Shown: positions 1 to 31,576, counted from the stretch's first letter. The stretch is DNA of 64,000 bases from Elephas maximus (GCF_024166365.1 NC_064841.1:46375680-46439679); one strand, 5' to 3'. The notes: generated by a model from the letters alone, not told the origin. Translations and numbers: made by a program.

Positions 1-520
1 TTTATCTTCTTAGGGGCTACTGTAGATGGTATTGATTTGGTGATTTCCTCTTTGACATTCCCTTTGTTGATGAAGAGGAATCCAACTGATTTATATACGT
101 TTATCTTGTATTCTGATACACTACTAAACTTTTCTATTAGTTTCAGTAGCTTTCCTGAGGACTCTTCAGGTTTTTCTGTGTAAAAGATCATGTCATCTGC
201 AAACAGAGGTATCTTTACTTTTTCTTTGCCAATATAAAAAAAAAAAACCACTGACTCATATGGATGCCCTTTATTTCTTTATCTAGCCTAATAGCTCTGG
301 CTAGGACCTCTAGCACAATGTTGAATAAGAATGGTGATAAAGGGCATCCTTGTCTGGTTCCTGTTCTCAAGGGGAATGCTTTCAGTCTCTCTCTGATAAG
401 ATAATGTTGGCTGTTGGCTTTGTATAAATGCCCTTAATAATGTTTAGTAATTTTCCTTCTATTCCTACTTTGCTGAGAGTTTTTATCGTGAAATGGGTGT
501 TGGACTTTAAAACTTTTTTT
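1..520 (-). mobile_element. L1 LINE fragment, ORF2 reverse-transcriptase region. It continues beyond the window start.
   Basis: The reverse complement matches the L1 ORF2 sequence at 40166-40700 and 46100-46540 at nucleotide level, including [29 protein letters not shown]... Confidence 0.85.
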
Positions 521-2652
521 TTTTTTAATATTTTGTCCAGAAATTAAAACTCTTATTGACAGAATTAGTCATATACAAGTTCTTTCACTATTCCAAGAAC
601 AAGAAGTTTCTCTTCATCCCTATTTTCATCATTCCTTTTTAGTCTAGTGCAGGTCAAACAGACTAAAAATCAGCTAACTCATCTACCCTGGATTATGAAA
701 AGGCTGACATTTTAGAGGTGGTGGCAGTTCACTTCATCTACAAATACAGGTTAATTGCTTAATATTTATTTTATAAGAAAAATATCTTAGAACAGGACTA
801 GCATTTGAACTTCAAGCCACTTGCTGGATGTCTAAGATCTCCTCATCCATCCCTTCATTGTCAGAAGAAGAAACTGAGATCCAGAGAGGCTGAAGTCCTT
901 GCTCTGGAAGACAACTGGCAAGATGCTCTTCAAATTTGTTTTGTCTTCCTGGGCACAAAACTAAACTACATTTCCTAGTCCCTTTGTACCTGGATAACTA
1001 GTTCTGGCCATATTTTCTCTCTTTTCCTCCTGTCTGCCAGGTGACAGATGCCAGAGTAATCTTTTTGTATTTTTCCACCAGGGCAATTTTAAAGCTACAT
1101 ATTAAAGATTACAAAGCCTCAGTATGGAAGGAGTCTGGTTCTCTAAATGCTCTGTCCTTGCTGACCAATGTTTGACAGTGATGTGAGTAAAAAATAATCT
1201 ATTATTGTATTAAGCTGTGTTAAACTCAGTTAAAACCAAGGTTTTCTTTTTTTTTGAGTAGTCAGTGCTACTTATGCTAATAAATTTGTGTGGTATGACT
1301 AAAATTAATCCCCTACCTTTTGCTGGTCAACAAATATAATCCCACTTATACATTAGTTACATAATTACTATTATACTATTCAAAAAAAATAATTTATAAC
1401 AATTAATGTGCTGGAAAAAATAGCGACTTACCTAGAGATCGAATGCCTTTTTGTTCAAGAAAGCTGTTTAAAAAATTTGTATTAAGGTTTAATATAAATC
1501 CCAGTTCTGGAGTAAGTTTCCAGAAGCCATCCTATAAAATTAAGAAAACGAATTTAAGTCACATCATTAGAATTTCATCACATAATAAGTTTCCACTATT
1601 TCAATTCGGTTAATTGAAACATTTCTGAAAATTTTGTTACCATAAAATCAAAGCTCTTCATAGACTAGTGATACAGAATTGTTTTGAATCTCATAAACAC
1701 TATGACACTAAGTATCTAAAGTCATTTAAATAAAGAAGTTCATGTGTAGAGAGTTTAAAAAATGGTATTTTCTATTTTTTTGTTTTTGTTCTAGCAATGC
1801 TTTGAACCAGTGTGTCAGACTTTTAAATATCATTATCTCTTTTGTTCAACATAAAAAAATTGGCCTTCAGAGTCTAAAACTTGAAAATTGTACTTTTCTA
1901 AATATAAAATTTAATATTGAACATGCTTTTTGAAACTACATATATACTTCCCTGTATCTACCATCTCCTGTCCTCCTCAGCTAAGAGCCACTACTTCAAA
2001 GACTGATCTTTATCACATGCTCATGAAAGCATGGTAAGCCTGAAGATGGCGATCCTAACCTTGAAGGAGATAGACCGAGGTCTTAGGGAAACTAACATAG
2101 GAAGCAGAAATGAGGATGCAGTCATAAGCAGGTGCACAGGTTAAAGGATCTATGCCAAGAACTTTAAAAAATAAGAACATGAATAATACGTGCCAACCCA
2201 AATTGAACTAATGTCAGGTACACTTTTTTTTATCTTTTCAGCAACTTCTTATGTAAGGATTATTATTACACTCACTTTGCAGATGAAGACACAAGGTCCA
2301 GAAAGGTGAAATTAACTTGTTTAAAGTCACACTGCTGATACGCAGCAGAACCAGGATTTAAAATCCAATAGTATGGCTCTAGGGCCCACAATCTTGACTA
2401 ACTGCTATACTCCTTCCCACACTGCTTTTATGTACATTATCTCATGTAAGGAAAGCTGGGCAGCTGTTATTATCCTGTTTAAACATCACAAACATTCTAG
2501 GAGGCAGACACTATTACTATCCCCATAATATGGATGAAGAAATTGAAACTCAAAAACGTTATCTGACTTGCCTAAAATCAAAAGTGGTAGGGCTGGGACT
2601 CAGACTTAGTCTTATCATACTAAATCAAGCTGCCTTTTCACTTTACTATTTA

Positions 2653-2706
2653 AAATAAATAAATAAATAAATAAACAAACAAATAAATAAATAAATAAAT
2701 AAATAG
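2653..2706. repeat. (TAAA)n / (AAAT)n microsatellite.
   Basis: Direct tandem taaa units with a few c substitutions. Confidence 0.95.
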
Positions 2707-3044
2707 AGATGTGAGATTGGGCCTTGGTTTTTATAGGCTGTTTATTAGCTTAACAAAAGAAATAATAAGTTCTAACCACAATTATACTAAATCATATCTA
2801 TATTTCAAAGACATTATGTAGAAATTATTTAGGCTATACTTCCAGCACTTGCGCTTTACTTCCAAAAGGAAATTTACATAAATTTCAATTCATCAGTTTT
2901 TTAGCTTACTCTATGACCTGTGCAGGGATGTTAATGTTCAACTAAGGAATATTAGCGTGCACTAGAATGATGTTTCAGATTAACACTTAACAGAGAAACA
3001 CCAGTCAAATACATCACGAAGTACATTTTTTAGTTCAGTGGACT

Positions 3045-3050
3045 TATTTA
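3045..3050 (-). promoter_or_regulatory. Candidate polyadenylation signal AATAAA downstream of the large terminal ORF.
   Basis: The minus strand reads AATAAATAAG about 86 nt 3' of the stop at 3136. AATAAA hexamers are common in AT-rich DNA. Confidence 0.2.
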
Positions 3051-3135
3051 TTTACGGGTAGCAAGATTTCCTTGATGAAGGAAGTGATCTGTTGATTTGT
3101 TGTTTATGACCAAGGGATGGTCATAAACTATGAAG

Positions 3136-4227
3136 CTAACTAACTACAGGCTTAAAAAGAAATAAGATCAATACCTCAGTTTGTAGACTGAAGAGTTTAG
3201 TCCAAGGCACAAAATTCCTCCAGCTTTTTCTGCAGACTTTGTCATCCTCATTATTTTGTGCCTGAAAGCTTGAGGTAAAATCACTTCTTGTTACATCAGA
3301 TTTTGCTACCCTTTTTGAAAACCTACGTGCTTGAAGCACTGGCCTTTCATTACTTTTCATTTCAGAAGAACTTTCATGAATTGAGGCAGTCCAAAGATCA
3401 TGTTGGGGAGCATGTGACAATACATTTCCAGCAGAAAGAGTTAATGGAAAAGAAACTCCTGACTCACTGCTAGCAAACCCAAGTACATCTATTGGTGGCT
3501 TATAATTGGCACTCAAAGGACCCAGAGAATTTTGAAAATGAAGAGGAGAGGGAACGCCAAAACCTGTGGCTGAAACAGGGGGAGGAACTCTAGGAACAGG
3601 AAGAAAAAGATGTGGTCTGGGAGTAGAACTGCCACTTCCATAGATCTCATGGTCTTGGTAAATTTTAGATCGATCAATCTGTTTGGAGCCAAACAATACA
3701 GGTGAAAAAAGAGAAGAGGCACGGGATCTAAAAGGTGGGTTCTGGGGTGGCAGCCTGGAAGGGAAATCCAACTTAACAGAAATGTCAGTACAACTGTCAG
3801 TCTCAAGGTCTTGGTCATATTTAGATGGACCAAACTGTCTGAGACTAGCAGGAGAACCAAAAACAGAGTTCTGAGGAGAGCTGGGAGGGGAGAGAGAAGC
3901 AGAATCAACGTGAAAGGCACCTAGGGGAGTGGGTGCAGCATCAAGAGAAAGAGAAGGCTTGAAAACAGCATTTTTTCTGTTTAAAGAGGATTTCCTAAAT
4001 TGTGCTTTAATTCCTCTTTTTTTTAATGAATTCATCCAGCTTAAATCCAATGGCTTTGCCACAAGTCTACATTCAGAATTGCATATTGAAGGTTGTACTG
4101 GTAGTTGTGTGGCTAAATTAAACACTTCAACATCTTCAGACACTTCCATCTTGAGTGATTTAACTTCTCTTTCAGTCAAAGATTTGGGTTGCAACTCTTC
4201 GTTCAGTTCAGAGGATGCTGAAACAAT
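3136..4227 (-). CDS. Large Ser/Pro-rich coding exon, probably the C-terminal exon of the same VWA5B-like gene. It runs IVSASSELNEELQPKSLTEREV...KVCRKSWRNFVPWTKLFSLQTEVLILFLFKPVVS*.
   Basis: An uninterrupted ORF of 1.1 kb is very unlikely by chance in AT-rich DNA. The acceptor cattacaattttctcttctgggtag| lies at 4228-4229, and its own TAG is the in-frame upstream stop. The ORF-track start at 4194 is a TTG, not ATG. The exon ends either at the stop codon (3136-3138), with an AATAAA on the minus strand about 90 nt downstream at 3045-3050, or at a possible donor ACTGAG|gtattg at 3175. Its N-terminal residues weakly resemble VWA5A GVISSFTAFIAINKEL. Confidence 0.45.
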   Translation of the reverse strand: MVSASSELNEELQPKSLTEREVKSLKMEVSEDVEVFNLATQLPVQPSICNSECRLVAKPLDLSWMNSLKKRGIKAQFRKSSLNRKNAVFKPSLSLDAAPTPLGAFHVDSASLSPPSSPQNSVFGSPASLRQFGPSKYDQDLETDSCTDISVKLDFPSRLPPQNPPFRSRASSLFSPVLFGSKQIDRSKIYQDHEIYGSGSSTPRPHLFLPVPRVPPPVSATGFGVPSPLHFQNSLGPLSANYKPPIDVLGFASSESGVSFPLTLSAGNVLSHAPQHDLWTASIHESSSEMKSNERPVLQARRFSKRVAKSDVTRSDFTSSFQAQNNEDDKVCRKSWRNFVPWTKLFSLQTEVLILFLFKPVVS

Positions 4228-5611
4228 CTACCCAGAAGAGAAAATTGTAATGTAAGAAGAAAATACAGAATAAAACTAACAATCCAACAAGCATACTGAA
4301 GACTTTCTTGTAGTCAAGCAATTGTTTACGCCAGATCTTGAGTCCCAGAATCAGGATCATCGACATGAGCAAAAACATTGAAGATAAAACCAGAGATCTT
4401 CAGTATCATTTAAGTATGACTCCCTCATTTTATAAATATGGAATTTGAGGCCTGGAGAGAATGTCAGCAATAAATATATCAGGTACTTAAAGCTTTTCAT
4501 CTCTTTAGAATCACAGAACTTTAAGCACTCCTCATTTTACGTATGAGGAAACTGAAAACCATAGGAATAGAGTGACTTGCCCAAAATGTTACAATTAGCA
4601 GAATTACAGTCTGTAAATTAGCCCTAAAATAAGCTAACGATTTGAAGTAATTTTTTCTAGTTTTTTATCCTGGTTTTCAGCAATATTAAGAAACTGAGAA
4701 AAATGAAAAGATATTTCAAAGGCTTTAATTAAAGTAACTAAATGAATGTATCTTCATACCAGAGTAGAACAATATGGATAACACAGGGGAATGAAAAGAT
4801 GCTATTTTACTATTATTTCAATCTAAATATGGTGTCCCTTAAAAAGCTGCATATAATCAAATCAAGTTTCATACGCACGGTAAGTTCTTTAGCTTTAATA
4901 CTTTTGTAAATAATTAGTCCCTAAATGCATCAAAGTAAATGAGCTTTTAAAAAAGCAGTACCCCTTTTCCAACTCAGCCAAGTTCCAAGCATACATTTAA
5001 ATAATTAATACTACAAAACACATAATAAAACACACATTTAAAAACAATATTTTTTAAACAATGTTTATCTGGTTCAGAAATATTTTTTGGAATTAGACAA
5101 GCAATCCAAAAAGAACAATAGCGATGTATTAGGTCCATCAGATGTTAAAGCATTTTCTAATAACTACAATAACTAAAATGGATAGATCAATGGAACAGAG
5201 CAGATAGTCAAGCAATATACCCCTAAACATGGGTATTTAGAAGATGAAAAGGGTATTTCAAATCAGTGGGAGAAAAGGAATAATCACTCAATAAACAGTA
5301 TTGGGAGAAGTGGGTAGCCATCTGGAAAAGAATAAAAAAGTTGGTTCCATACTTCTTATTTTATATCAGGAAAAATTCAAACTGCATGAGCAATTTCAGG
5401 GAATTCACATTACTAAGGGCTCATTTCCCAAATATATAAACTTTCCTAAAATAAATAAGAAAATGACTAACAAACAGCACAATAAAAAAGTACAAAAGAC
5501 ATGAACAGACAGTTCATAAAAAGGGAGATATGTAGACCCTTAAGAATAGGAAAACATGCTCTTCATTCATAAAGAACAAAATGAAAATTAAGAAGTCACT
5601 AATACATTTTT

Positions 5612-5722
5612 ATTTTTTTTTCAACAACTGTAAGGATGGCTCAGGACCAGGCAATGTTTCCTTTTGTTGTACAAAGGGTCGCTATGAGCCGGAACCGACT
5701 CGACGCCACCGAACAACACCAC
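5612..5722 (+). mobile_element. RTE-tail / AfroSINE 3' tail fragment.
   Basis: It contains ggctcaggaccaggcaatgtttcc...gggtcgctatgagccggaaccgactcgacg, the conserved RTE/AfroSINE tail. Confidence 0.7.
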
Positions 5723-5759
5723 CACCAATACATTTTTCACCTATTTTGTTCGTACATTA

Positions 5760-7005
5760 AGTGTTGTTATTGTTAGGTGTTGTCGAGTCAGTGCCGACTC
5801 ACAGCGACCCCATGTACAACAGAATGAAACGTTGCCTGGTCCCGTGCCATCCTCACAATCATTGCTGTGTTTGAGCCTATTGTTGCAGCCGCTGTCTTAG
5901 TTATCTAGTGCTGCTATAACAGAAATACCACAAGTGGATGGCTTTAACAAAGAGAAATTTGTTTTCTCACAGTCTAATAGGCTAGAAGTCCAAGTTCAGG
6001 GCATCAGCTCCAGGGGAATGCTTTCTCTCTGTCGGCTCTGGGGGAAGGTCCTTCTCATCAATCTTCCCCTGGACTAGGAGCTTCTCTGCACAGGAACCCC
6101 GGGTCCAAAGGATGCACTCTGCTCCTGGTGCTGCTTTCTTGGTGGTATGAGGTCCCCTTGTCTCACTGCTCACTTCTCTCTTTTATATTTCAAAAGAGAT
6201 TGGCTCAAGACATGAGCCAATCTCGTAGATTGAGTCCTGCCTCATTAACATAACTGCCACCTATCCCATCTCATTAATGTCAAAGGGGTAGAATTTACAA
6301 CACATAGGGAAATCACATCAGATGACAAAATGGTGAACAATTACAATACTGGGAATCGTGGCCTAGCCAAACTGGTAACACATATTTCAGGGGACACAAT
6401 TCAATCCATGACAGTCACTGTGTCAATCCATCTCATTGAGGATCTTCCTCTTTCTCACTGACCCTCTACTTTACCAAGCATGATGTCGTTCTACAGGGAC
6501 TGGATCCTGCTGATAATATGTCCAAAGTACATGAGACCATGTCTTGCCATCCTCACTTCTGAGGCGCATTCTAGCTGTACTTCTTCCAAAATAGATTTGC
6601 TCAATCTTTTGGCAGTCCATGGTATATTCAATATTCTTCACCAACACCATAATTCAAATGCATCTATACTTCTTCAGTCTTCCTTATTCACTGTCCAGCT
6701 TTCACATGCATATGAGGTGGCTAAAAATACCATGGTTTGGGTCAAGTGCACCTTAGCCCTCAGAGTGACATCTTTGCTTTTTAACACTTTAAAGAGGTCT
6801 TTTGCAGCAGATCTGCCCAATTCAATACAATGTTTGATTTCTTGACTGCTGCTTCCATTTATAGTAGCAAACTATTCACAGAGTTCTCCACAATACAAAC
6901 AGAGCTGCCTTATTCTTTATAACGGTAGTATAGATGTTGCTAGACTGCCCTCCAAAGAGGTTGTACTGATTTACACTCCCACCAGCTTGGAGGAAAGTGC
7001 CTTTA
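5760..7005 (-). mobile_element. RTE/BovB-type LINE 3' portion, antisense. It carries a roughly 520-bp foreign insertion at about 5897-6418.
   Basis: The reverse complement of the RTE tail is at 5770-5895 and the reverse complement of the RTE ORF C-terminus at 6420-6850. The track ORF 6480..6845 on the plus strand is its antisense reading. The RTE sequence ...gttgcagcc(a/g)ctgtc|...|cactgtgtcaatccatc is split by the insert, with a short ctgtc-type duplication at both edges. Confidence 0.7.
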
Positions 7006-7007
7006 CC

Positions 7008-7540
7008 ACTTTTTTTTTTTTTTTTTTTACACCTTATTGTACTTTAAGTGAAAGTTTATATAGCAAATTAGTTTTTCCATCAACATTCCATGCACAAACT
7101 GTTCCATGACATTGGTTGCAATCCCTGCAACATGTCAGCCCTATTCCCATTTCCTCCCTGGCTTTCTTGTTTTCATTCATCCAGTGTCCCTGCCCCTCCC
7201 TGCTTTTTCATCTTGCTTTTGGGCAATCACTACCCTTTTGGTCCTGTACAATTGATTATTCTAAGGAGCACATTCCTCATGGGTATTATTGTTTATTTTA
7301 TAGGCTGAGAGGTGGTCTCTGGGAGTATCTTCAGTTTCCGTTAGAAGGCTGTCTTAGGGCATTAGTCTCAGGGGTTCCTCCAGTCTCTATCAGACTATTT
7401 CCAGGCACTCTTGCTAATAATAATGCTGACATTATTGAATGCCTACCAAGAACCAGACATGTTCTAAGGGTCTTACATGTACTAATTCATTTACTATTCA
7501 CAACTCTATGAGTCAGGTTCAATTATTGTCACCATTTTAG
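7008..7540 (-). mobile_element. L1 3'UTR/3' end with poly(A), seen as poly-T at 7008-7030. It is 5'-truncated.
   Basis: The reverse complement resembles the 3' terminus of the elephant-type L1 3'UTR (...gacttgatttgtaaactttcacttaaagcacaataaaaa). It has the same structure as 58857-59400. Confidence 0.65.
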
Positions 7541-8092
7541 AGCACAAAGAATTGGAGCATGACTGCCCTGACAGGGAACACAACAGAGAACCCCTGAGGG
7601 AGCAGGAGAACAGTGGGACACAGGCCCCAAATTCTCATAAAAAGACCCGGTTAAATGGTCTGACTGAGACTAGAAGGACCCTTGCGGTCATGGTCTCCAA
7701 ACCTGTTGGCTCAGGACAGGAACCATTCCTGAAGCCAACTCGTGAGACATGGATTGGACTGGACAGTGGGTTGGAGAGAGATGCTGAAGAGGAGTAAGCT
7801 ACTTGCATCAGGCGGGTACTTCAGACTATGTTGGCATCTCCTGTCTGGAGGGGAGATGAGAGGGTAGAGGGTGTTAGAAGCTGGCAAAATAGTCACGAAA
7901 AGAGAGACTGGAAGGAGGGAGTGGGCTGTCTCATTGGGGGGAGAGTAATTGAGAGTATGTAGTAAGGTGTATTTTTTTTTTTAGTAAGGTGTATATAAGT
8001 TTTTATGTGAGAGACTGACTTGATTTGTAAACTTTCACTTAAAGCACAATAAAAATTATTTAAAAAAAAAAGAATATATACAAAAAAAAAAA
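7540..8092 (+). mobile_element. L1 3'UTR/3' end with poly(A). It is 5'-truncated.
   Basis: It is near-identical in structure to 48530-49018 and 50000-50500 (...gactgacttgatttgtaaactttcacttaaagcacaataaaaattatttaaaaaaaaa). Confidence 0.85.
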
Positions 8093-8284
8093 AAAAAGAA
8101 CTGGTGCACTGAGAGGTTATGGTCACATAGCTAGTTAAGTGGGGTGGGGATTCAAACCATAACTCCTGTTTTCTTAACCACTATATTTTCTGACCTTCCA
8201 CTTATCTTCCTTTTTTGATCTTTGCCATTCTGATAGATTTAAAAAAAAAAAAAAACAGAATTTCACTGGATTCTTAATTGGCAT

Positions 8285-8620
8285 TTCTCTTGGCAACCAT
8301 GAGGTTGAGTAGCTTTCATATGTTTGAGTCATACTATTTCTTTATATATGATCAAATCCTTTGCCTATTTTCCTATGGGATTACTGGTCTTTTTAATAAT
8401 TTTTAAGAGCTCTTTACATGTTAAAAAAGTTAATCTGTGTCTGTTGCAAATATTTTTTCCCAGTTCATTATTGTCTTTGAATTTTATTTGTCATATGTCT
8501 AAATCTCTTGCAGATTTTTGAAACACTATTCAAAGAGCACCTTGCTGCTAGCTTTTTAATATAGTTTTGGTTTGTAGCCTTGGTTCATTCCAAAATAGGA
8601 TTTCAGATGGCTAGTTGTGC
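8285..8620 (-). mobile_element. Older L1 ORF2 fragment, antisense.
   Basis: The plus strand reads the characteristic antisense-L1 text (...tttgcctattttcctatgggattactggtctttttaataatttttaagagctctttacatgtt...). Confidence 0.6.
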
Positions 8621-9145
8621 CATGCCCACTCATCCAGCCCTGCCACAACCCATCTATTCTGTGGCAACTACATGGGTGCTCTTTTATCTAATAGGGTTGT
8701 AACTAGGGAAGTGTGATGGTTAAGGTTGTGTGTTGACTTGGCTGGGCCATGATTCTCAGTGGTTTGGCAGTTATGTAATGATGTACTCACCTCCATAATG
8801 AGATCTGATATAATGTAATCATCATGATGAGATCTGTTATGAGCAGTCAATCAGTTGAAAGGGAGTTTCCTTGGGGCCCCCTGGAGTGAATGATTTTAAT
8901 TTTCTGTTTACCTATCCATGAATGAAGCCTAACCACACTTGTTCTCTTGTACTTTACAACTACCCTCTCAGTTAAAATGTCTGATACGTTTTCCTCGATC
9001 ATGCACATTTTCGTAAATGTGCAAAAATTTTTCATCATCAGGGAGACAACAGTTTTTGCATATACAGGTCATAAGAGTGCTATTGCAGATTCGTCACCAA
9101 CATGGAAATATAAAAATACCAACTTATTTGGTAATTAACATTTAC

Positions 9146-9268
9146 CTGTGTCATGCCGGCATCTGATTGCTCCTCCTGCCAAGTTATATATGGCAGAAAG
9201 TCCACATCTTCTTTGGCAATAAGTTCCAAAATATTTGGAATATTAGGAAAAGGTAACTCATTCTCACC
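9146..9268 (-). CDS. VWA5-family gene, probable exon. It encodes GENELPFPNIPNILELIAKEDVDFLPYITWQEEQSDAGMTQ (41 codons, phase 0 to 0).
   Basis: Acceptor gattcaatatag|GGTGAG and strong donor ACACAG|gtaaat. It resembles VWA5A TFPLQPKPDVNLTIHRLAAKSLL. Confidence 0.4.
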
Positions 9269-9699
9269 CTATATTGAATCACAATTGGGTTAAACCAAAA
9301 CAGACATTATCAAATAAAATCACTACTATAATTTTAAAGCCTGTGAATGTTTAATCTGGAATATGGTTGTGTATAAGATTGGAACATGTACCCTTAGCCA
9401 CGAGTCAGTAGAATGATGTTGCTATTTGAGCACTTACTGGGGGCTGGGCACTGCATTGACTGCTTTACATGGATTTTCCTCTGCAACTTAGGAAGGAGAA
9501 ATGACCTCTCAGAGGGTAAGGGAAGTCTAGAGCCCTTTCTATTTTTTTAGGTTCTTAGATAAATAAAAGAAATGCCAAAAATGTTACAAAATTTTAGTGT
9601 ATCTTAAAAGTACATACGTTTAACTAATTAATAACATTAAAAATGATAATATATATAACCCATTAAGAGAGATCATCATAAGTCCTAATACTGATGAGA

Positions 9700-9905
9700 C
9701 CATTTGTGAATGTGAGGTGGCCCTGGTTCTATGACACTCCTGGCCTCTCCTCATCTCCACTCCTCATAAGCCATGGAAGTAGGTGTTGTTACTAGTACCA
9801 TTTCACAAATGAGAACATTGAGGCTATGTAACTTGCACAAAGCCAGTAACTGGTCTAACCAAGATTCAAGTCTGGTTCTATCTGACTTCAAGACCTTTGC
9901 TCTTA
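9700..9905 (+). mobile_element. MIR SINE.
   Basis: It carries the MIR core ...aggctatgtaacttgcacaaagccagtaactggtctaaccaagattcaagtctggttc.... Other MIR fragments lie at about 2270-2400, 4480-4600, 8095-8170, 12400-12560, 16480-16800, 17820-18060 and 19890-20160. Confidence 0.7.
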
Positions 9906-9918
9906 ACTATTGTACTAC

Positions 9919-10117
9919 ATTATGAAAAAGTGAAGAAACCTTTTTTGGGACGTATTCTTTCTTATGAACTACAGATAACTGAAGAGTAAAATTATACGAG
10001 GAAGCAATGAATTTCCCTGAAATGTCCGGATGGTGAAAATACTGCTCCTCTTTCGGAGCCACTGTGAAGTCTGAGTCGCAAAGGTGGAAGAGGAGCAGTT
10101 TATCTCTTTGGACTGGC
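9919..10117 (-). CDS. VWA5-family gene, post-VWA exon. It encodes ...PVQRDKLLLFHLCDSDFTVAPKEEQYFHHPDISGKFIASSYNFTLQLSVVHKKEYVPKK(VSSLFHN).
   Basis: Acceptor cacaatcctccaag|GCCAGTC with entry phase 2. It aligns to VWA5A QPAVEDVSLSWHLPPGLSAKMLSPEQTVIFRGQRLISYAQLTG. The 3' boundary is ambiguous between two weak donors, AAAAAG|gtttct at 9940 and CATAAT|gtagta at 9919. It is part of the 9907..10158 minus ORF. Confidence 0.5.
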
Positions 10118-10493
10118 CTTGGAGGATTGTGTGGAAATAAGAATGCCTTCTGGTGCAAATATCAAGGGTTTCCTATGGGAGTAGTCCAGCTACTGTTCCA
10201 GAAACTCATAGAGGCATCAAAAACTCAGATAACTTCAGTTACTGTCAAAGAGCAAAATAAGAGGCCAGGTAGGGATTGCAGCTCAACACAGTTCTTGTGA
10301 GACTGGAATGTGAGCTGCTACTCAGCTCTGCCATGTGAAAACGGGAATGCAGTATAGCCAGGTCATCAGATTTTTCAAGAAAATTAAGAAATCTGCGTCT
10401 TTGGGAAAAATCTCTGATAAATTTAAGTAACTAAAACAATTTTTCGAAAACACTCTCAGAATAAATAAAACACATCTGTTTAGTGGGCTGGAT

Positions 10494-10705
10494 ATGGAGC
10501 CCAGGTGGCGCAGCAGTTAAAGCACTCGGCCACTAACCAAAAGATCGACAGATCAAAGCCACCAGCCACTATGCAGGAGAAATATGTCGCAGTCTACTTC
10601 TGTAAAGATTTACAGCACTGGAAACATTATGGGGCAGTTCTGCTCCGTCCTAGGGTTTCTATGAGTCAGAATTGACTAGACAGCAATGGGTTTGGTTGGT
10701 TTTTT
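10494..10705 (+). mobile_element. AfroSINE-type tRNA-derived SINE, full length.
   Basis: It has a tRNA-like head with A-box tggcgcagcagttaa and B-box ggttcgaa-like gatcgacagatcaaagcc, then ...ggggcagttctgctccgtcctagggtttctatgagtcagaattgact..., and a GGTTT-rich tail. Confidence 0.85.
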
Positions 10706-13700
10706 GGTCTGGACTGCTTACGGTAAGGGCCACCAACCAGTCTGACTTCTACCTTAGCATTCTAGGTCATATATGAGCCCCTGGGAAAAGTCTTGGGAAG
10801 GCAGGTGATGAAAGTCATTGTCTGTGTGGCGGCCTCACTGGCTTTGCAGGAGTCACGTTTCATCCTCCTAGTACAGACTGCAATCCTCACTCAATGAACA
10901 GGATACCACCATTGAGAACCGCTGATGCTATTACAGGTAGCTGCCAGCCCTTGTCATATTTTATTATAATCCAGACCGACTGACTTTGAAACACTAAGAT
11001 ATCAGAAAAATCTTTAGAGATTGAAATTCCTATTATACATAAAACTATTTGTACACAGTTTTACAATGCCCAACAAGACTGACTCTGGTCTAGTCACTTT
11101 TTGTTTTCTCACATATAAAAAGTTCTAACTGGGCCTATTGAAAGTGTTCCTCCCCCTTTATATGAAACTTAGCATCTCTAATGGAAATAAGCAGGGATAT
11201 TGGTATGAACTTGACAAAAATGCATCTATGAAATAAATCTAGGGTTCTCTAAAAACTGTGCTTTGTACATTACTAGAAAATCAGTTCTTCTAAAAAAAGT
11301 CATTTTAAATATTATTCTTCAGTTACATTAATAATAATAATAATGAGCAATTGTTTAATCCAAGCTTTACTTCTTTACTATTTAAGATTAATCACATTGA
11401 AAGCCCAGTTTTCTTTGACATTAAATTCAGTGCTTTCCGCCACACTACCTCACATAAATGTGAAAAATCCTGTGTTTGAGATTTCTTTCTGTGAAATGCA
11501 GATTAGCAATCAGAGCAAGAATAATTTTCTCAATATGTAAAGATAAATAATTTAACCATGAGTTAACAACAATACGTACTCTTTTCTCAACTGCCACAAA
11601 GCTTGTAAACTGTGTTAGGAGAGAGTTTTCTTTACTGATTTTAATAATCAGAGATTTCAAGACTTGCTTCTTCATCTAGAATAGAATAAAACAAATGACA
11701 TCATGTCCTGTTATATTTTTTACTATTTACCTACATATGACCAATTAAAAGAGTATTAAGTAATCTAAAAAGTTATTTTTCTATGACAAATAAATCATTT
11801 CATTAGTATTTCAAACTATTTAGTCAATGATCCTAGGTAAATATCAAATAGGTGACTCCAATGTTTCCTGCAAAATAGGATCAACTGAAGAGCTAATTTG
11901 GAAAAAATAATTCATATTTATGTAGCTCTTTATAATTTCTCATTCTTTTACAGACAACCTGTAAGGCAGATGTCTGGTTCCCCTTCTAAAGAAAAGGAAT
12001 CAAGGCTTGGAAAGGTTAGATGACTTGTCAGTGGCAGGGCTGATCAGGAGCCATGCCGCCTAGCTCTTAGTTCAGTGCTGCCTCTCAGAGGAAAAAAGGA
12101 CCTTAAGAAAACTGAACACAAAGCTGCTAATCAGAGGGCAATAAAGGAGTCCTGCGAAAAGCAAGAGGTAGTTTTTTACTGGCCAGGACTGCTTGGAGGG
12201 CGTCCAGGCTCTTGAGTGGCACACAGGCACCTTCCTTTAGGGATGGCACTGAGCACTGATGCTCCCAGCCACATTTGAGATTCCAGCCCGTGAGAGACAC
12301 CAGAACAGTCAGAGTAGGTGGCTGAGTAGACCCTTGTCTGGAGGACATCAGCACAGTGAGGAGTGGCTTTGTCTCTTCTGTATGTCCTGAGGCAGGTTCC
12401 CAATCCCTTGTGCACTTGAGTTTCTCATTAGTAAAATGGGGATACTAACACCTACAACATGGGTTTGTTATAAGAATGAAATGAGGTCATGTGCATTACA
12501 GACACTTAGTAAATGTTCTCTTTCCTCCCTTGGCTGAATTCTCAGGAAACCACTAACATTCTTTCCCTAGGTAATTCATTCAACATGCATTTACTGAGCA
12601 CCCTGCACCCCAGGTACAGATATAACAGAGACAATGATGAAGCCTCCCACAACCACACTCATCTTTTCCACCCAGCTGTCCTGATTTGACATGTTTGAAG
12701 ATAACTCAATTTAAGAATGACCAAGAACAACGCATAATGGTTTCTACTATGAAAAAAACAGACCTGGTGATGTGTTTCATTTTCATGGAGAATGCCATAT
12801 TCAAAATCTCTAATGAGAGCTCGGGCTGTCAGCTTGTGAATCATCTATGTTTAAGAGGCAAAGGAAAAAAGATTCCAATGGCTTCTAATTAAAGACTTGC
12901 ATAGAAAACCAGTTTTTAAATTGAAGTATAATTTACATACATTAAATGCACCCTTCTTAAGTGTAGTTTGATTTAACAAATGTATACAGTTACACAACCG
13001 AAATAAAGATACAGAGCATGTCCTTCACTTTAAAATATTACCCCTGCTCCTCTAACCAGCTCCAGCCCCTAGCAACAACCACTGATTGATCTGTTTTCCA
13101 TCCTTACAGTTTTGCCTTTTCTATGAAAGGCCAGTACATAAATTCAATTTATTTCAGAATTTTAAAACTGTTTCTTTCCTGCAGGAAGAGTCAGCTTAGT
13201 CCCTGTAATGCCCAACATGAACATATCCAACATTAATATACTCTGAAGAACAAGAGCAGCAAAAATTGCATTATGAAGGATTTCCTCCTTTTTCTCTCAG
13301 ATGACTAAGAAATGCAACTGATCTTGAATGGCAATATCTGCTTTTAGTGATAACTCCAATCCTGTAATTTTGTTCTTGATAAGGTCATAGTTCATAAAGT
13401 AAGCATGACTATTAAAACTTCCGCCCAGATTCAATTTTTAAAGCAATATAGCTTTAAGTTCTTAAGTTCCCTTAAGTTCTATATATAAATCACTATCAAG
13501 TAATAAGTCAAAAGTTACTGATTCAGTGTCAAAAAGTAAGACATATTTTATTTTTTAAAAACATCAACAACATCTGGGAAACAGTTTATCTGGTTATAAA
13601 AGTACTCCAATTAATAGCAAGCTATATGTGATTAGTATACATAAAGAATTTTCAAACTACAGTGGATTCAGTACTAATGCAAATACTGCAAATTTTTTTG

Positions 13701-14384
13701 ATAATTCATTTGCTTTTAACCCAAAAATAGAAAAAAACAAACATATTCTCAATATATGATATGGTTTACTCTTACTCTGGTGCTGTTATACTTAATATAT
13801 ATAAAAAAAAAATAGACCAGTAGCATTACACTTTTATTGTGTCATGGCTATCTTTGAGATCTCCCTAGAAAACTTTTCATGCATAAAATGCAATATTTAA
13901 TTTATTCACACCCATTGAAGCTCATCTACGGACACAGAACCCCAGATAAAGACCCTCTGCATTAGAAACTTAAGGAAAGTGTCCTCATTTGTACAGACAA
14001 CAATCCTTCACACTGCATGTTGAAATCTCAGCACAGAAAAACAACAAAAGAAGTAGATGAAGCATTATATATTAAAATATAAAATTACAGCTTTGGAACA
14101 CTTGGTCCATATTTTAAGTTTTAAATCTTACAGTTCCAGTTGTCTTCTGAAGTTCTGTAGTTGACACCATTGTACAAAATTCTTTCTCTTGAATTAATGC
14201 ACTTAGAGTTGCCTGAATTGGGGAAAAAAAAAATTCCTCATTGGCTTTTCAACTCCACAGTGTCTTGGTTAGTCTAACAGTGATTCCTTCAGTGATTTAT
14301 TCTCCCCTTTGAAATGGAATTTAAAGGCTCTCCAGCACTCCTGGTTAACCACCAGCTAGCCCTGGAGAAGGACATAGTGCTCGG

Positions 14385-14548
14385 TAAAGTAGAGCGTCAG
14401 TGAAGAAAAGGAAGACCCTTAACAAGATGGATTGACACAGTGGCCGCAGCAATGGGCTCAGGCATAACAATGATTGTGAGGATGGCTCAGGACCGGGCAG
14501 TGTTTTGCTCTGCTGCACAAGGGGTCACTATAAGTCAGAATTGACCCA
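14385..14548 (+). mobile_element. RTE 3' end fragment.
   Basis: It reads ...ttgacacagtggccgcagcaatgggctcaggcataacaatgattgtgaggatggctcaggaccgggcagtgttttgctctgctgcacaaggggtcactataagtcagaattgac. Confidence 0.75.
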
Positions 14549-17500
14549 ATGGTGCCTAACAAGAACATGTTCTCAGCAGCAGAAAGTTTGCCAGCATACT
14601 ATGATTTGGAAGGGGGTACAGGGAGGAGAAAAAAGAAAACAAGAAAAAGACAATTATTAGCAAACTACATTGCTCTTCCCATAGTAAAACAAATTATGTG
14701 CCTTCGTACCTGTGTGCAATGTGGAATAAACCCATAGACGAGGAGGAGGTCATTGTGGAACAAAGACTGCACCTGGGCTGGTGCCTGCAAAGGTTCAGGC
14801 AAATTCGTGCTTAGCTGCTGCCATTTGACAGAGACTGAGTGGCAACTTGGAGAGTGTAATCTAGTCATTTGGTCTTCTATCTATTCACAAAAGAGGGATT
14901 ATTCCTTTTTCAATTTTACATCCAGGAAACACAGAGCTCACAGTGTTATTTAACATTTAAAATAAATTTTACATTCAATCTTTTTGGATTGTTGCCATTT
15001 GTTTCTTTCTCTTTCCTGCTACAGGTACTTTTTTAAAAGCAACTATATCGAATTTTTTTATAATAGCACTATCACATAACTGAAATTCACAAAATGTCAT
15101 AAAATTATTTCATTAGCTAATTACTAAAATGCAACTATAGGTATAAATTCCATTTATAAAAATTCATGCTAACAAAACCTATGTAATACTTTACTTTTTA
15201 AAATCAACCCGTGACACTTTATAAAGCAGTAATCAAATTATGAGCTAGAAGAATGAGTCGATTAAGTATTGACTGTGTTCCTGCTAGGTACGAGGCAGAT
15301 GGTCATCAGGGCAGGTGGTCAGACCTTCAGTAGCTTTAGCCTCTTTAGGGCTCCTCATTCCATTAATGAAAGCATAGGAGTTACTGTCACTACCCTTGTT
15401 AGAATATTTCTACACATAAACAGAAGACTACATATAAGATGTTTAAAAATCATACCTGTGTTTTCCAACTATGTTTGGATTTTGAGTTAAAATATTCAAA
15501 TACTCCGGCACCACACTGGGACAAAGTCCTTAAGATATGACGATTTGCTGTAGAACTAATCACATTTCACGTTTCAATTTTCAAGAAATTTTAGAAAACT
15601 TTCGCAGTACATGTTAACAATGTTGACAAAGCTCAAAACTGAATAGAAGAAGCATTACATGAAGAAGAATTTACTCTTCTACATCTGAGGTTAGAGAGAG
15701 AAAATTTGTAATAGACAGTATGATATATCTGAAGGTTTGGGTAATTTCAGCTTCCACGTATCAGAGGACTTTCTTATCTTCGACTATAGAAATAAGGAAA
15801 AAGGTAGGAACTTTTGACTTTTGGTCTACCTAAGTAGGTAGATGATTCTGAAAAAACCCCAAAGGTATCAGAAGAGATCAACCTACTTCTGATGAATGTC
15901 AAAGTTACCCGAACCGGATCCCAAAGGCCAAGAACTGGCAAAAGTGTTAATAGTCTACCTCTTAAATTGTATTACATCACTTCTAGATAGCACAAGTTAT
16001 AAAAGAAGTAATTCTCACTCTAGCTAAGAAAATTTTTTATATTTAAGTGATAAGTATCCTATTAAGATTCTCTCAATAATCAAGAATGCCTTTCTTGGGA
16101 AGTTTCTTCCTGAAATATTATGGAAATGATCAATTATTTTTCAGAAAAAAAGTTTAAAATTATTTCTAAGATATTTTTTAGCCCAAGCTAAAGACTGATT
16201 TTATCTTTTGTCCTCAAAATTAACTGACAATGATTATGATGTTGATTAGAAAATCCTTAAGACAAAGGTTATTAGTATTTTCTAGATTTCGTCAGTTAGG
16301 CTAGTTAGAATCTTTTTTGTGCCCCATTGTGTGGACTGCAGAGGACAAGTTATTTCAACAGGAAAAAGGCAGAACCGATGATCACTATTACTACAGAACC
16401 TGTACTAGAGTTTGTAAATATAAAATGTAGGTATAAAACAAGGCAGTAGCATTTAGAAAGATCATGACATAAATCATGATAATTGTAGCTCCTTCAGGCT
16501 GGGTCCTGTAACCAGCACAGCATCACTCCTCAGGGGAGGCTTTCTGACTCATGGTTCTACCCCCTCCAGCCCCACTCACCCTTGATCACAACTTCCCTAT
16601 TTCCTTACCAGCACTTGAGAAAACCTGAACTCACCCTCTAATTTGCAGGATTACTTGTTGACTGTCTGCCCCCTAGAATGAAAACTTCTTAACACAGGAC
16701 TCTTCCAGTCTCTCCTGGTACCGCGCCTCAGTGCCTAGCACAGTCTACCTTGTGATGAGCGCTCAGTGAGTAAGGGCAGAAATAAATGGTGCCGTCTGAG
16801 CCACAGCATCTGAACCTTGCTCTTTAGCATGGTCTAGTCTTCTCCAAAGAAGTATAAGCAGGCCTGTTCCATGGTAGTGTGGAGTCTGATGGAGGGGAAG
16901 TAGGCAGTGTTGTCATACACCAGGAAAAATTTACTGGAGCATTGGCTCAGGCAGGGATACTACCAGTGGAAAGGAGAAGACGGATCCCTACAGTATGGAC
17001 TAGTCCCAAGTTCACAGGTGCTACCTAATCATGTAAAGCCTCATTACTACAAACTCCTGCTAGAGTCCGCTCAAGGTTGAATAAATTTAATATGGTCTGT
17101 GACGCCCTGATAGGCCTTGGATGTCACAGGGCAGGAGCTGTGACTGCGAAGGAGGGGACGAAAAGAGAGACAGAGTGTCTAGCACTCTGGGGCAGGCAGG
17201 TCTGGCCTGAGTGCAGTGGAGCAAGCATCCAAGGGCCCTGGGCTCCTGGAGCATCCAGAGAACACAGCTGACCTGTACTTCCTGCCCCCACCCCCATCCC
17301 CTCAAAGTGTCAAGGTGAGGGTATGTTTAGAGTACCGGGAGATGAGTTGGATCCTTGTATTGCCTCAGAACAAAGAAAGCTGGCAGGTCTTTTTCTGGAA
17401 GGGTGTCTGCAGGGCAAGTACAGGGGGCTTCAGGGACAAGCCCAGAGGATTATGCTGTATGCAAACATCAGTATAGCACTTTCTGTTCAGTATTTTCCTT

Positions 17501-18250: not shown

Positions 18251-18329
18251 TTTTTTTTTTTAATTAACTTCAAAACTTTCAAAAACCCTGGGCAAACCAA
18301 CCAAAAAGCCTGCCTGCAGGACTACTCAC

Positions 18330-18517
18330 CCAGTGCCACAGGTGAACATCCTGGTGTGCTGGACATTTCTTTTCACAAGCTTGAATGTTAGGCTCTCGTT
18401 CTGAATGTGCCCATCAGATATAAGGAGGATGTTCCGTAGCCCCTGAGAAGGGTACAGCAAATTTAAATATCGGAGAGTTTTCCAGAAGTCTGTATTTCCC
18501 ATGGTAGGTGTAGCAGC
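18330..18517 (-). CDS. VWA5-family gene, VWA-domain exon. It encodes AATPTMGNTDFWKTLRYLNLLYPSQGLRNILLISDGHIQNESLTFKLVKRNVQHTRMFTCGT(G) (phase 0 to 2).
   Basis: Acceptor tcatttcctccag|GCTGCT and donor CACTGG|gtgagt. It aligns to VWA5A ADLGGTEILAPLQNIY...LQLFVFTDGEVTDTFSVIKEVRINRQKHRCFSFGIGEG. Confidence 0.65.
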
Positions 18518-19119
18518 CTGGAGGAAATGAAGAAAGAGATTGTTTACTCATTGTTGGGAATATTCACCATGAACTGTCATCATTTCCTGAAACACATGCC
18601 TCCTAGAGATACTGTCATTGAAAATTTTCCTTTTTTCTACTTATACATTTACGGAACAACTATACTGACATCCTTTGAGTTTACTTTCATGTCACACTGT
18701 AATGATATTTTTACTTTGCATCTATTTACTTTTTTACAGTTTTCAAAGAACTATTACATACACTTCACTTAATGGGACAAAACATCATATAAAAGTTTGC
18801 CAATCTAGGCTGAAGCAGAGTCTGGTCACTCTTAGCTTGCCCCAAACAAACAAACAGAGAGAAGAAAACACTCTAAAACATTAATGGTGGTTACATTTGG
18901 ATGGTGGGACTACTGTTGATTTTTTCTTTCTACTCTTTTTTAATATCCAATATTTCTTTAATGAGTACATATCACTTTTATTAATAAAATAAAAAAACCT
19001 GCCAATATACAAAAACTGAAGAACTAGGGCTTTTCTGATAGTGACCTCATGGAGAGTGAGTCCTCAACAGTACTACTCAATAGAAAAACGCTCAGATCAA
19101 GGAAGGCACTTTTACTTAC

Positions 19120-19187
19120 CATAATGAACTCTGTTGGCATATCATTACTTGTGATATACTTAGGGTATGAAAATAATTCCTTGTAAC
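19120..19187 (-). CDS. VWA5-family gene, VWA-domain exon. It encodes (S)YKELFSYPKYITSNDMPTEFIM (phase 1 to 0).
   Basis: Acceptor tcttattatgcag|GTTACAAGG and donor CATTATG|gtaagt. The phases fit both neighbouring exons. It matches VWA5A SYEACFPESVKYTQQTMEEAL. Confidence 0.5.
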
Positions 19188-20263
19188 CTGCATAATAAGA
19201 TTGGCATGCAGTGTTACCATTAAATATTCACTTTATTGACTATTAATAAACACCTGTACCACAACTGCTAACTTAAAGACTATATTATACATTTATGCGC
19301 ATACCTTACTTTTAAGAAAACTATCTTTTCTCATTTTAACACAGTATATTCAAAATGTGCATTTCACTATTCACTATTCAAAATGTTATGAGTCAAATTA
19401 AATGCGTAGACCTCTGTTCTGTAATATATCATGAATGTAAAGGTGCAAAGGGTCCCAAATTGCACAGGCAGGTTGACCATGATGAAAGGTGTACTCTCCA
19501 TGCATGTGCTTTGCACTCCTCATGCTAACGTGACCTCTACCCCCTGCAGCATGCAGATCCCAGCTCAACTGTAAAGTAGGACAGGCTTTTTGCTGAATGA
19601 CACAGAATATAACAATCACCGGAAAGTGGTATACCTCCTCATTCCACTCTATGTTCCTTCTTTCATTCCTAAAGAGGTGCCTTTTGGAGGCTGAGATGTT
19701 TCAGTGGCCCAACCTGGAGGATGGGGTTACTTTTCTTCTGATAGTGCTCATCTGATGTTTTCTGACCATTCCTTATAGATATTCTACGACTATACTGATT
19801 TCAAATATTCTGTTCTTATTCTTAGGACCTTCATTCATGTCAGATCATGGGCTTTGCTTTTGGTTCAGTCAGTAGTAATACTAATAGTTATATTTACAGG
19901 GCACTTACTATGTACTATGCACTGCTTTAAGCACTTAATCCTCAAAACAACCCTATGAGGTAGGGCCTACGTATTAACATCTTTTACAGATGAATAAAGT
20001 GAAGCATAAAAAGTTCAAGAAACCTGCATAAGATGACACATATAGCTAGAAGGTGGTTACTGCTGTTGTTGCCATCGAGTCGATTCCAACTCATGACCAC
20101 CCCGTGTATAAGCAGTAAAGCCAAAATTTGAACCCAGGCAATCTGGCTCCAGAGCTACCTTTCACTCTATGAATGAGTTTGGGTTCACTGATTCAGCTCT
20201 ACACGAGAGTATGTTCATATTATAGAGGAAGCTCACTTTGGCTCAGAGCCACAGAATACTTAC

Positions 20264-20459
20264 TTGTGCCAAACTTGACAATGTTTATTTTTTGGTTCTT
20301 ATCCACCAGGGACAGTGCATATAAGGCAATTTTCTTGGCTTGCAAGAATGCCTCACCCTCCATAGAATTGGAACAATCAAGACAGATAATAACTTCACTT
20401 TTCTTGGCTGTTTCAGGGAGGGTGATATTAAAATCTGGCTGAAAGACAAGCATGCAAGC
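20264..20459 (-). CDS. VWA5-family gene, first VWA-domain exon with the MIDAS motif. It encodes ACMLVFQPDFNITLPETAKKSEVIICLDCSNSMEGEAFLQAKKIALYALSLVDKNQKINIVKFGT(S) (phase 0 to 1).
   Basis: Acceptor c(t)13ctttTag|GCTTGC and donor GGCACAA|gtaagt. The DxSxS MIDAS motif is DCSNSM. It aligns to VWA5A AMVSFYPNIPEDQPSNTCGEFIFLMDRSGSM...IQAAKETLILLLKSL...FNIYGFGSS. It falls within the 20220..20453 minus ORF of the track. Confidence 0.65.
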
Positions 20460-23080: not shown

Positions 23081-23208
23081 TTGTGTGGTCCAACATTGTC
23101 TAATGCTATTTTTTCAGTATTATCAACAATTTGCAAATTTAAGTAACCAGTTTATTCTGAAATGTTTTTTCACGAGTGTCTCCTATTTCTAAGTAAGAAG
23201 CAGTATAC

Positions 23209-23346
23209 CTCACTTTCTTTCTCAGGATATTTTTCAACCCACATTCTTGGGAGATATGCATCAGACAAACCGATGTGGAGAGAAAATCCATTGCTGTCCA
23301 AGGAACTACCTTCCATAGTGCTAATTACAGCTTTGCAGTCTGTGCG
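23209..23346 (-). CDS. VWA5-family gene, exon at the VIT/VWA linker. It encodes RTDCKAVISTMEGSSLDSNGFSLHIGLSDAYLPRMWVEKYPEKESE (46 codons, phase 0 to 0).
   Basis: Acceptor ttattgtcattgttttgtag|CGCACAG. The donor GTGAG|gtatac is weak, but an in-frame stop follows soon after. It resembles VWA5A KTSAQVSLAAGHKFDRDVELLIYYNEVHTPSVVLE and joins in frame to the next exon. Confidence 0.45.
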
Positions 23347-29455: not shown

Positions 29456-30313
29456 TATAATCAATCACTAAACCCCTACAATCAGGAATGTTTACACTGC
29501 TTGCTTTAGAAATATTGAATTAGTTAATTTGTGTCAGGAAAGAAGAAATTGATGTTAGGATAGAAAATGATGTTAGGAAAGTTTGTAGTTTGACAACCCC
29601 TTGTAAATTTCCCTTCCTTACCTGGTATTCCCCCTTGATGAGATCCCATTTTGCCTTTGTTTGCTCTGCCTGATAAACACCTCACTGCTCTCCCTGCAAA
29701 CCAGAACACAGGCTCCCTCTTGTTTGAGTGCCCATGTGATTCATTTCACAAAATGATCTTATTTGTCTTTTTCCTTCAATAAAATTCCTTGTTACAATTT
29801 CTAGCAGAGTGTCTGTCTAGTGTTTTCACTAGGACAATTATAATAAGAATTATGAAACAGATGACTCAAGAAACAGAAGTAAAAACTTTTTATTTAAAAC
29901 TATGGAGTAAACCAGAAGAAACAGCTATATTCTAAAGCAGGTCAGTCTCTGGGTGCTGATGGGGCCAGGCAGGGACTGAATGAGACTGCTACTTTTTCTT
30001 AAAAGTTGCTGTATTATTTGACTTTTTAAACTATGTGCATGCATTGCTGTGGTAAAGTAAAATTAATTTTTAAACAAGAGTTCTTAAGAAATAAAAAAAA
30101 AATTTACTAACCTTTTGTTTTAGTTTATGTGTATCACTAGAAATGAATTCGATCACGTATGGCATCTCAATGTACATACTCAAAGAGAAGCTATCAAAGA
30201 TGAAGAGAAAATTGTCTTAGTAGTTGCTTCAAATAATTTTAAATGAAATTTTAACAATGAAACTAATGTCCATTGAATGATAAACTGACAGGTTTCATAT
30301 TTTAGGTACAAAC

Positions 30314-30360
30314 CTTTGCTTTGTCCCTATTTCCTTTACGCAAATCTTCTCTACTGTATC
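30314..30360 (-). CDS. Candidate 47-nt micro-exon of the same gene. The frame ...YSREDLRKGNRDKAK is loosely similar to VWA5A ...EYLGEDK.
   Basis: Acceptor tatttctttttacag| and donor CAAAG|gtttgt. The exit phase is compatible with the next exon at 23346. No exon linking it to 31412 was found. Confidence 0.2.
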
Positions 30361-30959
30361 CTGTAAAAAGAAATACGTATATATATAAAATTACTTATTA
30401 GGTTTCATGATGAGACTCTAAACTGAATACAATCTAAGCAAGGCCACAGAGGCATTTGCTTATGGAATGACAGTAACTTCTAAAATACAAGAATATGGGG
30501 GATAAGTTACGGCCATTTTGATAAAGATTTTCAACTATGCATGTGTGTGTGCATATTTGTATGTATGCATACACACACACATATACACATACACATATGC
30601 ATACAATTTATATAAATAAATACATAGTAAGAAGTCTGGAAGGACATATACCAAAGCATTAACCAGTAGTTATCTCTGGATGATAGAATTAAGGATGGTT
30701 ATTACCTTCCTCTTCTGGCTAATCTGCATTGTCTATGCTTATCTACCTCTGCTACCTGTCAGTTTGTTGTACTGTGGTGGCTTATATGTGGCTATAAAGC
30801 TGGAGGCTATGCCATCAGTATTTCAAATACCAACAGGGTCATCCATGGTGGATAGGATTCAGCAGAGCTTCCAGACTAAGATAGAGTAAGAAGAAGGCCT
30901 GGCAATCTACTTCCAAAAATTAGGCAATGAAAACCCTATGGATCACAACAGAATGTTGT

Positions 30960-31140: not shown

Positions 31141-31411
31141 TGCTTACCTAAATTCTTCATGATGAACATATAGTACAGATATAAATTTTTTTTTTTTTTA
31201 GGTAATTGAACAGAATAAAAATATTATGCCCATTAAGCGTATCCGTGTCTTTTATTCTTTTGACTTTACAAACAATATATGTATCTAAATGCTACAACAG
31301 CCAGTAAAATTGATTTTATGCTAAAAAAGATTAGATTATTTAGATTTTTTTTCTTCCCTTTACATAAATTCTGAGAAATGCTTCTTTAAATCTTATCTTA
31401 AGCACACTAAC

Positions 31412-31576
31412 CTGAATGTTTTCATTCAAAGCTTTGTCTTGTTGCCAGGGTGCCACAGTAGCAGGCATGCAGAAAACAGCAGCAGTACCTTGGACGCTGA
31501 GTTCAGTGATATAGGTAATTTTGATAAGAACCTTAGCCTTAGGAGGTAAGTTTCCAACACTTACAGTAAAAACTTC
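31412..31576 (-). CDS. VWA5-family gene, VIT-domain exon. It encodes EVFTVSVGNLPPKAKVLIKITYITELSVQGTAAVFCMPATVAPWQQDKALNENIQ (55 codons, phase 0 to 0).
   Basis: Acceptor tatttctttttcag|GAAGTT and donor ATTCAG|gttagt. It aligns to VWA5A DVFSCNVGNLQPGSKAAVTLKYVQELPLEADGALRFVLPAVLNPRYQ. Confidence 0.6.

Follow-up and report, generated by a model that had tools for sequence, protein, structure and literature searches.

An open reading frame in 64,000 nucleotides of Elephas maximus DNA is very probably an internal PARP4 exon orthologous to human exon 30

The longest open reading frame (ORF) of the window, by which we mean the whole analysed stretch of 64,000 nucleotides of Elephas maximus DNA, is very probably the largest exon of PARP4, which encodes the vault poly/mono-ADP-ribosyltransferase (vPARP), and an internal one, orthologous to human exon 30. 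The exon occupies positions 3175-4227 on the minus strand (1053 nt, 351 codons) and is in phase 0 at both ends. The feature has already been described, in 2014, as exon 30 of PARP4, and the assignment is an annotation correction and not a discovery.

On the minus strand, positions 3139-4227 comprise 363 sense codons without interruption, followed by the stop codon TAG at 3136-3138. No longer ORF exists on either strand of the window, in agreement with the original prediction, which described the longest non-repeat ORF of about 364 codons. The ORF is beyond chance: in 30 mononucleotide shuffles of the window, the longest ORF had 146 codons on average and 179 at most. The description of the ORF as Ser/Pro-rich was also apt (S 16.2%, P 9.7%, L 9.7%). 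An origin of the ORF from a repeat was ruled out by blastn, in which the region matched only itself and is thus single-copy within the window. A tandem-repeat scan of positions 1-12000 revealed no tandem repeats in the ORF, and the Rfam scan of the whole window gave nothing bearing on it. The exon is overlapped by two ORFs in other frames, one at 3513-3920 on the minus strand (135 aa) and one at 3914-4252 on the plus strand (113 aa). Homology supports neither of them, and the simplest explanation is that they are by-products of an exon poor in stop codons.

The ORF translation alone matched human PARP4 residues 1246-1582 with an E value of 1.9e-17 in a sequence search of the PDB, the alignment ending at ...VPWTKLFSLQTE / LQTE. 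The 1724-aa chain of PDB entries 9bw6/9bw7/11jf served as the human PARP4 reference; human PARP4 (vault PARP) has the UniProt accession Q9UKK3. The homology search of the translation, which had been suggested as a check of the original prediction, therefore yielded PARP4, in camel and bat as well as in human. When the exons 11580-11675, 9146-9268, 3175-4227 and 1432-1531 were spliced in silico, the resulting 458 residues aligned in one stretch with human PARP4 1150-1616 (E 3.5e-73), exon 3175-4227 covering residues 1223-1582. A 585-aa model spliced from the upstream exons matched human PARP4 638-1218 with 1094 bits, an E value of 0 and single-residue gaps only, and among the solved structures nothing else was matched but ITIH4 (E 1.3e-5). 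Pfam recognized a VIT domain in this model (residues 2-96, E 2.1e-35), followed by VWA_3/VWA (residues 238-393, E 4e-12 / 1.4e-10). VIT and VWA were likewise found in a concatenate of five ORF pieces, whose named database matches were PARP4 or PARP4-like, the other names being generic. PARP4 entries were present in two of the four clusters of exon 30 homologues. Using PARP4 of Camelus ferus (XP_032352428.1) and of Rousettus as tblastn queries, 17 colinear minus-strand exons were mapped from position 56052 to 1430, and their exon portions are stop-free. The window as a whole is mammalian-type DNA rich in LINE fragments, in which short, well-conserved ORF pieces are scattered on the minus strand.

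A word-indexed protein search with the ORF alone gave no match. We ascribe this to the limited sensitivity of such a search for low-complexity words, since both phmmer and the PDB search did produce matches. A negative result of a word-indexed search is uninformative for low-complexity queries in general; HMMER found nine homologues in this case. Pfam assigned no family to the ORF, as expected of a disordered linker.

The ORF had originally been taken for the 3'-terminal exon of a VWA5-like gene, with TAG at 3136-3138 as the stop codon and polyadenylation after AATAAA near position 3050. The choice of gene is explained by the fact that PARP4 and VWA5A have in common an ITIH-like VIT-VWA region as well as a helical domain of similar type at the C terminus (PMC10450202), a likeness that extends to VWA5B, and the FTSFVAVEKR-type motif of the window does resemble FTAFIAINKEL of VWA5A. 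Against a VWA5-like gene stand the 1094 bits scored by the upstream exons with PARP4 and the absence of VWA5 names from the named matches, and the exons of the window differ from VWA5A and VWA5B in being ~83% identical to PARP4 over ~580 residues. On the original prediction's account, a counterpart of the Ser/Pro-rich segment is absent from VWA5A. The match reported between IVSASSELNEEL, at the start of the ORF, and ...VISSFTAFIAINKEL of VWA5A was not real: IVSASSEL of the ORF aligns to SLLASSEW of human PARP4. Judged by eye, the motif that resembles VWA5A is LLTQFTSFVAVEKR, and it lies in the PARP4 exon 11580-11675 (minus strand), which encodes MKKQVLKSLIIKISKENSLLTQFTSFVAVEKR.

The splice junctions were defined by homology together with consensus dinucleotides, and AG/GT sites are present at each of the four junctions around the ORF. 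On this basis, the exon is predicted to be internal and frame-symmetric, spliced from 9146-9268 and into 1432-1531. The acceptor AG at 4228-4229 on the minus strand is preceded by the pyrimidine-rich tract cattacaattttctcttctgggtag, and the boundary 4228/4227 has the context ...ttctcttctgggtag/ATT (here and below, a slash within a sequence marks the junction). Across this boundary the frame runs from GMTQ into IVSASSEL, in phase and without a gap with respect to human RNQ/SLLASSEW, so that the acceptor 4228/4229 had been placed exactly in the original prediction. An alternative acceptor 10 nt downstream, tttcag/CATCC, was rejected because with it both the frame and the ungapped match to the human junction would be lost. 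The preceding PARP4 exon at 9146-9268 on the minus strand (123 nt, AG/GT bounded, phase 0/0) encodes GENELPFPNIPNILELIAKEDVDFLPYITWQEEQSDAGMTQ, and its product GENELPFP...GMTQ aligns to human PARP4 1182-1222; the in-phase link to this exon had been proposed correctly. The same does not apply to the exon proposed at 9919-10117 with phase 0/0. Its length of 199 nt is incompatible with phase 0 at both ends, and human, camel and bat PARP4 pass gap-free from 11580-11675 (...FVAVEKR) into 9146-9268.

At its other end, the exon stops 39 nt ahead of the ORF stop, at a GT donor at 3173-3174 on the minus strand (CAAACTGAG/gtattgat, boundary 3175/3174). The alignments of the homologues all stop exactly at ...LFSLQTE, i.e. 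at the 3174-3173 donor, and in human PARP4 as well as in the annotated camel and bat PARP4 proteins, DGFWKLTPELG follows immediately after the end of the exon. The next PARP4 exon (DGFWKLTPELGFILNLNTNFLNSFLEQKGIRSLG) lies ~1.6 kb downstream of the donor at 1432-1531 on the minus strand; it is 100 nt long, AG/GT bounded, ends in phase 1 and encodes DGFWKLTPELGFILNLNTNFLNSFLEQKGIRSL(G). It shares 85% identity with human PARP4 1583-1616 and 91% with Rousettus PARP4 and marks the beginning of MINT/MVPID, the MVP-interaction domain. The remainder of the ORF at 3136-3174 on the minus strand, 12 codons (VLILFLFKPVVS) plus TAG, is an intronic read-through tail that is non-coding in the PARP4 mRNA. The genomic ORFs P0049, P0050 and P0052 of other mammals cross the same donor, and their tails differ in length and sequence.

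The claim that the exon is terminal could not be maintained in view of the GT donor 39 nt before the stop and the conserved coding exon 1432-1531 downstream of it. The ORF does reach a stop codon, and one AATAAA follows 84 nt past it, as a VWA5-like terminal exon would need. However, the donor is conserved, the highly conserved exon 1432-1531 continues the PARP4 protein, and the tail beyond the donor varies between species. The 'cluster' of minus-strand AATAAA hexamers reported at 3045-3050 is a single, intronic AATAAA at 3047-3052, and the window is AT-rich and has 43 AATAAA on its minus strand (0.67 per kb), so that one copy here represents the background frequency. Taking these data together with the PARP4 matches of the upstream exons, we give practically no credence to a terminal exon of a VWA5-like gene.

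A related alternative within PARP4 is a minor isoform in which the 3175/3174 donor is bypassed, 12 codons are added, translation ends at TAG 3136-3138 and the transcript is polyadenylated in the intron by means of the AATAAA at 3047-3052. The donor GAG/gtattg is indeed off consensus at +4/+5, and the in-frame stop after 12 codons and the AATAAA 84 nt beyond it are compatible with such an isoform. The tail is not conserved as a coding sequence, though, and a single AATAAA in an AT-rich intron is expected by chance. All human and rhesus ESTs include exon 30, termination within the following intron being outside the scope of that study (PMC4038475). We consider the isoform very unlikely; if it were real, it would give rise to a PARP4 without the MVP-interaction domain, which would be untethered and could act outside vaults. 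The reading of 3175-4227 as an internal PARP4 exon is preferred to both alternatives.

Some PARP4 models of camels differ from the window at the preceding exon. The RefSeq models contain six extra residues (GSISYQ), which correspond to read-through of the 9146-9268 donor to a downstream donor. The equivalent stretch of the window, 9128-9145 on the minus strand, encodes VNVNYQ in frame and continues with CAA/ataagt, i.e. without a GT donor, which makes the longer form of the exon unlikely here. In the Camelus dromedarius protein 'Poly [ADP-ribose] polymerase 4' (P0011, 346 aa), ...SQGSISYQ is joined directly to DGFWKLTPELG. The large exon is thus skipped in frame, as its phase 0/0 permits. The skip could hint at a cassette isoform; since no ESTs with exon 30 skipped were found in human and rhesus (PMC4038475), it is probably an artefact of gene prediction.

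Overall, the minus strand of the window contains PARP4 from VIT to MINT. In the direction of transcription, the first exon mapped, at 55876-56052, contains the start of the VIT domain (its tblastn HSP overruns the acceptor by ~11 codons), and two further exons with parts of this domain lie at 55041-55130 (tblastn) and 31382-31576 (tblastn and Pfam), the bounds of both being approximate. A single tblastn HSP at 30112-30363 covers two small exons separated by a short intron and contains stops in its middle. The exon at 23191-23343 is followed by three exons of the VWA domain, at 20265-20459 (domain start; tblastn and Pfam), 19108-19188 (tblastn) and 18329-18526 (tblastn and Pfam), and then by exons at 15453-15560, 14707-14880, 14129-14215 and 12761-12844; all these are minus-strand exons with approximate bounds, taken from tblastn where no other source is given.

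At the 3' side of the gene, the window contains a single exon of the MVP-interaction domain (human 1562/1570-1724), the first one, 1432-1531; the remaining ~108 C-terminal residues of PARP4 (after human 1616) would be encoded beyond position 1, and positions 1-1431 gave no match to them. At the 5' side, PARP4 of camel and bat, used in full length as tblastn queries, gave nothing credible in 56053-64000, and the exons for the BRCT, WGR and PARP catalytic domains must be located past position 64000. In the human, camel and bat proteins, ~60 residues separate the catalytic from the VIT domain, and no exon matching them was seen upstream of ~56 kb. Either the intron upstream of the ~56-kb VIT exon is longer than 8 kb or a short divergent exon escaped tblastn.

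By eye, the introns of PARP4 are filled with fragments resembling LINE-1 ORF1 and ORF2, with reverse-transcriptase and endonuclease motifs, and these fragments make up the next-longest ORFs of the window. They were noted at 3-433 on the minus strand, within the intron that follows exon 1432-1531, and at 37113-39081, 40170-41082, 42714-47985 (+) and 59849-61820. ORF fragments at 6474-6871 on the minus strand, e.g. ILNIPWTAKRLSKSILEEVQLECASEVRMARHGLMYFGHI, together with the sequence GGGGTCGCTGTGAGTCGGCACTGACTCGAC, have the look of an RTE/BovB-clade retrotransposon, and the tails near 5760-5830 and 14436-14657 appear by eye to belong to SINEs sharing an RTE/BovB-like tail.

This intact, internal coding exon changes much more rapidly in evolution than the exons around it, yet its frame remains open and it retains conserved islands. 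Identity to human PARP4 was 82.7% in the ITIH-like part, 31.5% in exon 3175-4227 and 85.3% in the next exon; the corresponding values for camel PARP4 were 81, 37 and 85%. According to tblastn, the large exon shares 36% identity with camel and 29% with Rousettus (bat) PARP4. When 1.84 billion representatives were searched exhaustively with phmmer, no more than nine homologues of the exon emerged, of which the best shared 43% identity, and a profile search with the six-species alignment yielded only homologues with 31-36% identity, at which synonymous sites would be saturated for a dN/dS estimate. In the six-species alignment the frame is open over 322-360 residues despite identities of 30-43%, and 17 columns are invariant; the invariant islands include LDLS, individual residues (e.g. 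F123 and P164) and the terminal LQTE. The view of the ORF as a protein-coding exon, which had been put forward from the start, is thus corroborated by both the homology to PARP4 and the open frame in six species.

The same original prediction spoke of a rapidly evolving disordered tail. Rapid evolution is evident from 31.5% identity compared with 83-85% in the flanks. In an AlphaFold2 model of the four exons based on a 5-row alignment, the exon has one 4-residue helix (415-418) and otherwise no secondary structure throughout its length. The block means of pLDDT in the exon were 31-47, with the exception of one 10-residue block (57), and both flanks of the exon are helical with pLDDT 50-65. This output is weakly consistent with disorder, low pLDDT being a weak indicator when the alignment is very shallow. 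A simple charge-hydropathy measure lends no support to disorder, the mean hydropathy of the exon being 0.449 vs a boundary of 0.419.

The low conservation might also suggest a decaying, effectively neutral relic, which has lost constraint or become partly pseudogenised, as the original prediction envisaged. Identities of 30-43% to any homologue, the lack of a Pfam domain and the low-confidence structure would all fit this explanation. It is contradicted by the 351-codon frame without stops or frameshifts (the shuffle maximum being 179), by its persistence in at least six mammals, where it has a comparable length and invariant islands, and by the fact that both the splice sites and the remainder of the gene, with 17 colinear stop-free exons, are intact. 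Moreover, the published dN/dS above 1 combined with conserved residues is a sign of selection and not of neutrality (PMC4038475). Decay of the exon is therefore extremely improbable, and an intact, fast-evolving PARP4 exon is the reading retained here.

Exon 30 of human PARP4 (~1223-1582) occupies the same place as the elephant exon, being flanked by the last ITIH-like exons on one side and by the exon that opens the MVP-interaction domain on the other. Both exons have the junctions ..Q/S or I..ASSE at the start and ..LQTE/DGFWKL at the end, with phase 0/0 in the window, and both are Ser/Pro-rich and without predicted structure. The elephant exon has 351 codons and the human one 360; they share 31.5% identity with ~25 gapped positions, and the patch positively selected in primates (human 1504-1521) has no recognisable counterpart in the window. 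This is the ordinary divergence of orthologues for exon 30. Camelus ferus PARP4 (XP_032352428.1) and Rousettus aegyptiacus PARP4 (in the cluster of P0052) have colinear exons and the same LQTE/DGFW junction, the camel models differing by the extra GSISYQ.

In the published description, exon 30 encodes ~360 aa predicted to be almost entirely disordered and is positively selected (Daugherty et al. 2014, PMC4038475). Its human-rhesus dN/dS is 1.75 vs 0.63 for the whole gene; positive selection has been recurrent in primates and bats, the length of the exon is variable among vertebrates, and nine residues are invariant over 25 primate and bat species (PMC4038475). It was proposed to be an interface of host-pathogen specificity, by analogy with the v1 loop of TRIM5alpha and loop L4 of MxA, in which positive selection is likewise concentrated in an unstructured segment (PMC4038475). 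The PARP4 segment, with ~350 aa, is far longer than those loops, and the analogy does not imply homology. We know of no pathogen ligand of the disordered segment of PARP4.

The structure-poor Ser/Pro-rich segment encoded by the exon connects the VIT-VWA region, which is folded and ITIH-like, with the helical domain at the C terminus, through which the enzyme is anchored to the major vault protein at the inner vault wall. In cryo-EM of the vault-PARP4 complex, the MINT (MVP-interaction) domain was delimited to residues 1562-1724, and the long disordered regions of PARP4, which move freely in the vault lumen, could not be resolved (PMC12280208). By extension from this work, the segment may be a flexible tether that allows the catalytic and VIT-VWA parts to move in the vault lumen (PMC12280208). 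Its rapid change may reflect recurrent positive selection at a host-pathogen interface, judging from other mammals (PMC4038475). At such an interface the segment might recognize a pathogen factor (PMC4038475), or it might be cleaved or modified by viruses in a way that changes how PARP4 associates with vaults, the disordered segment having been suggested as a possible site of such viral action (Suskiewicz et al., PMC10450202). Judging from the published work, the segment probably serves as a surface for interaction or modification that adapts rapidly.

Two lessons for annotation follow from the comparison. When a long ORF continues for a few codons beyond a GT donor, it is easily taken for a terminal exon, and VIT-VWA exons by themselves cannot separate PARP4 from VWA5 or ITIH genes. 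What is new here is only one more divergent orthologue of exon 30. Exon 30 is among the clearest cases of positive selection restricted to one disordered exon and has been proposed as an interface between vaults and pathogens. That the elephant exon carries lineage-specific adaptive changes at such an interface is a possibility, by which the published hypothesis would be carried to another species.
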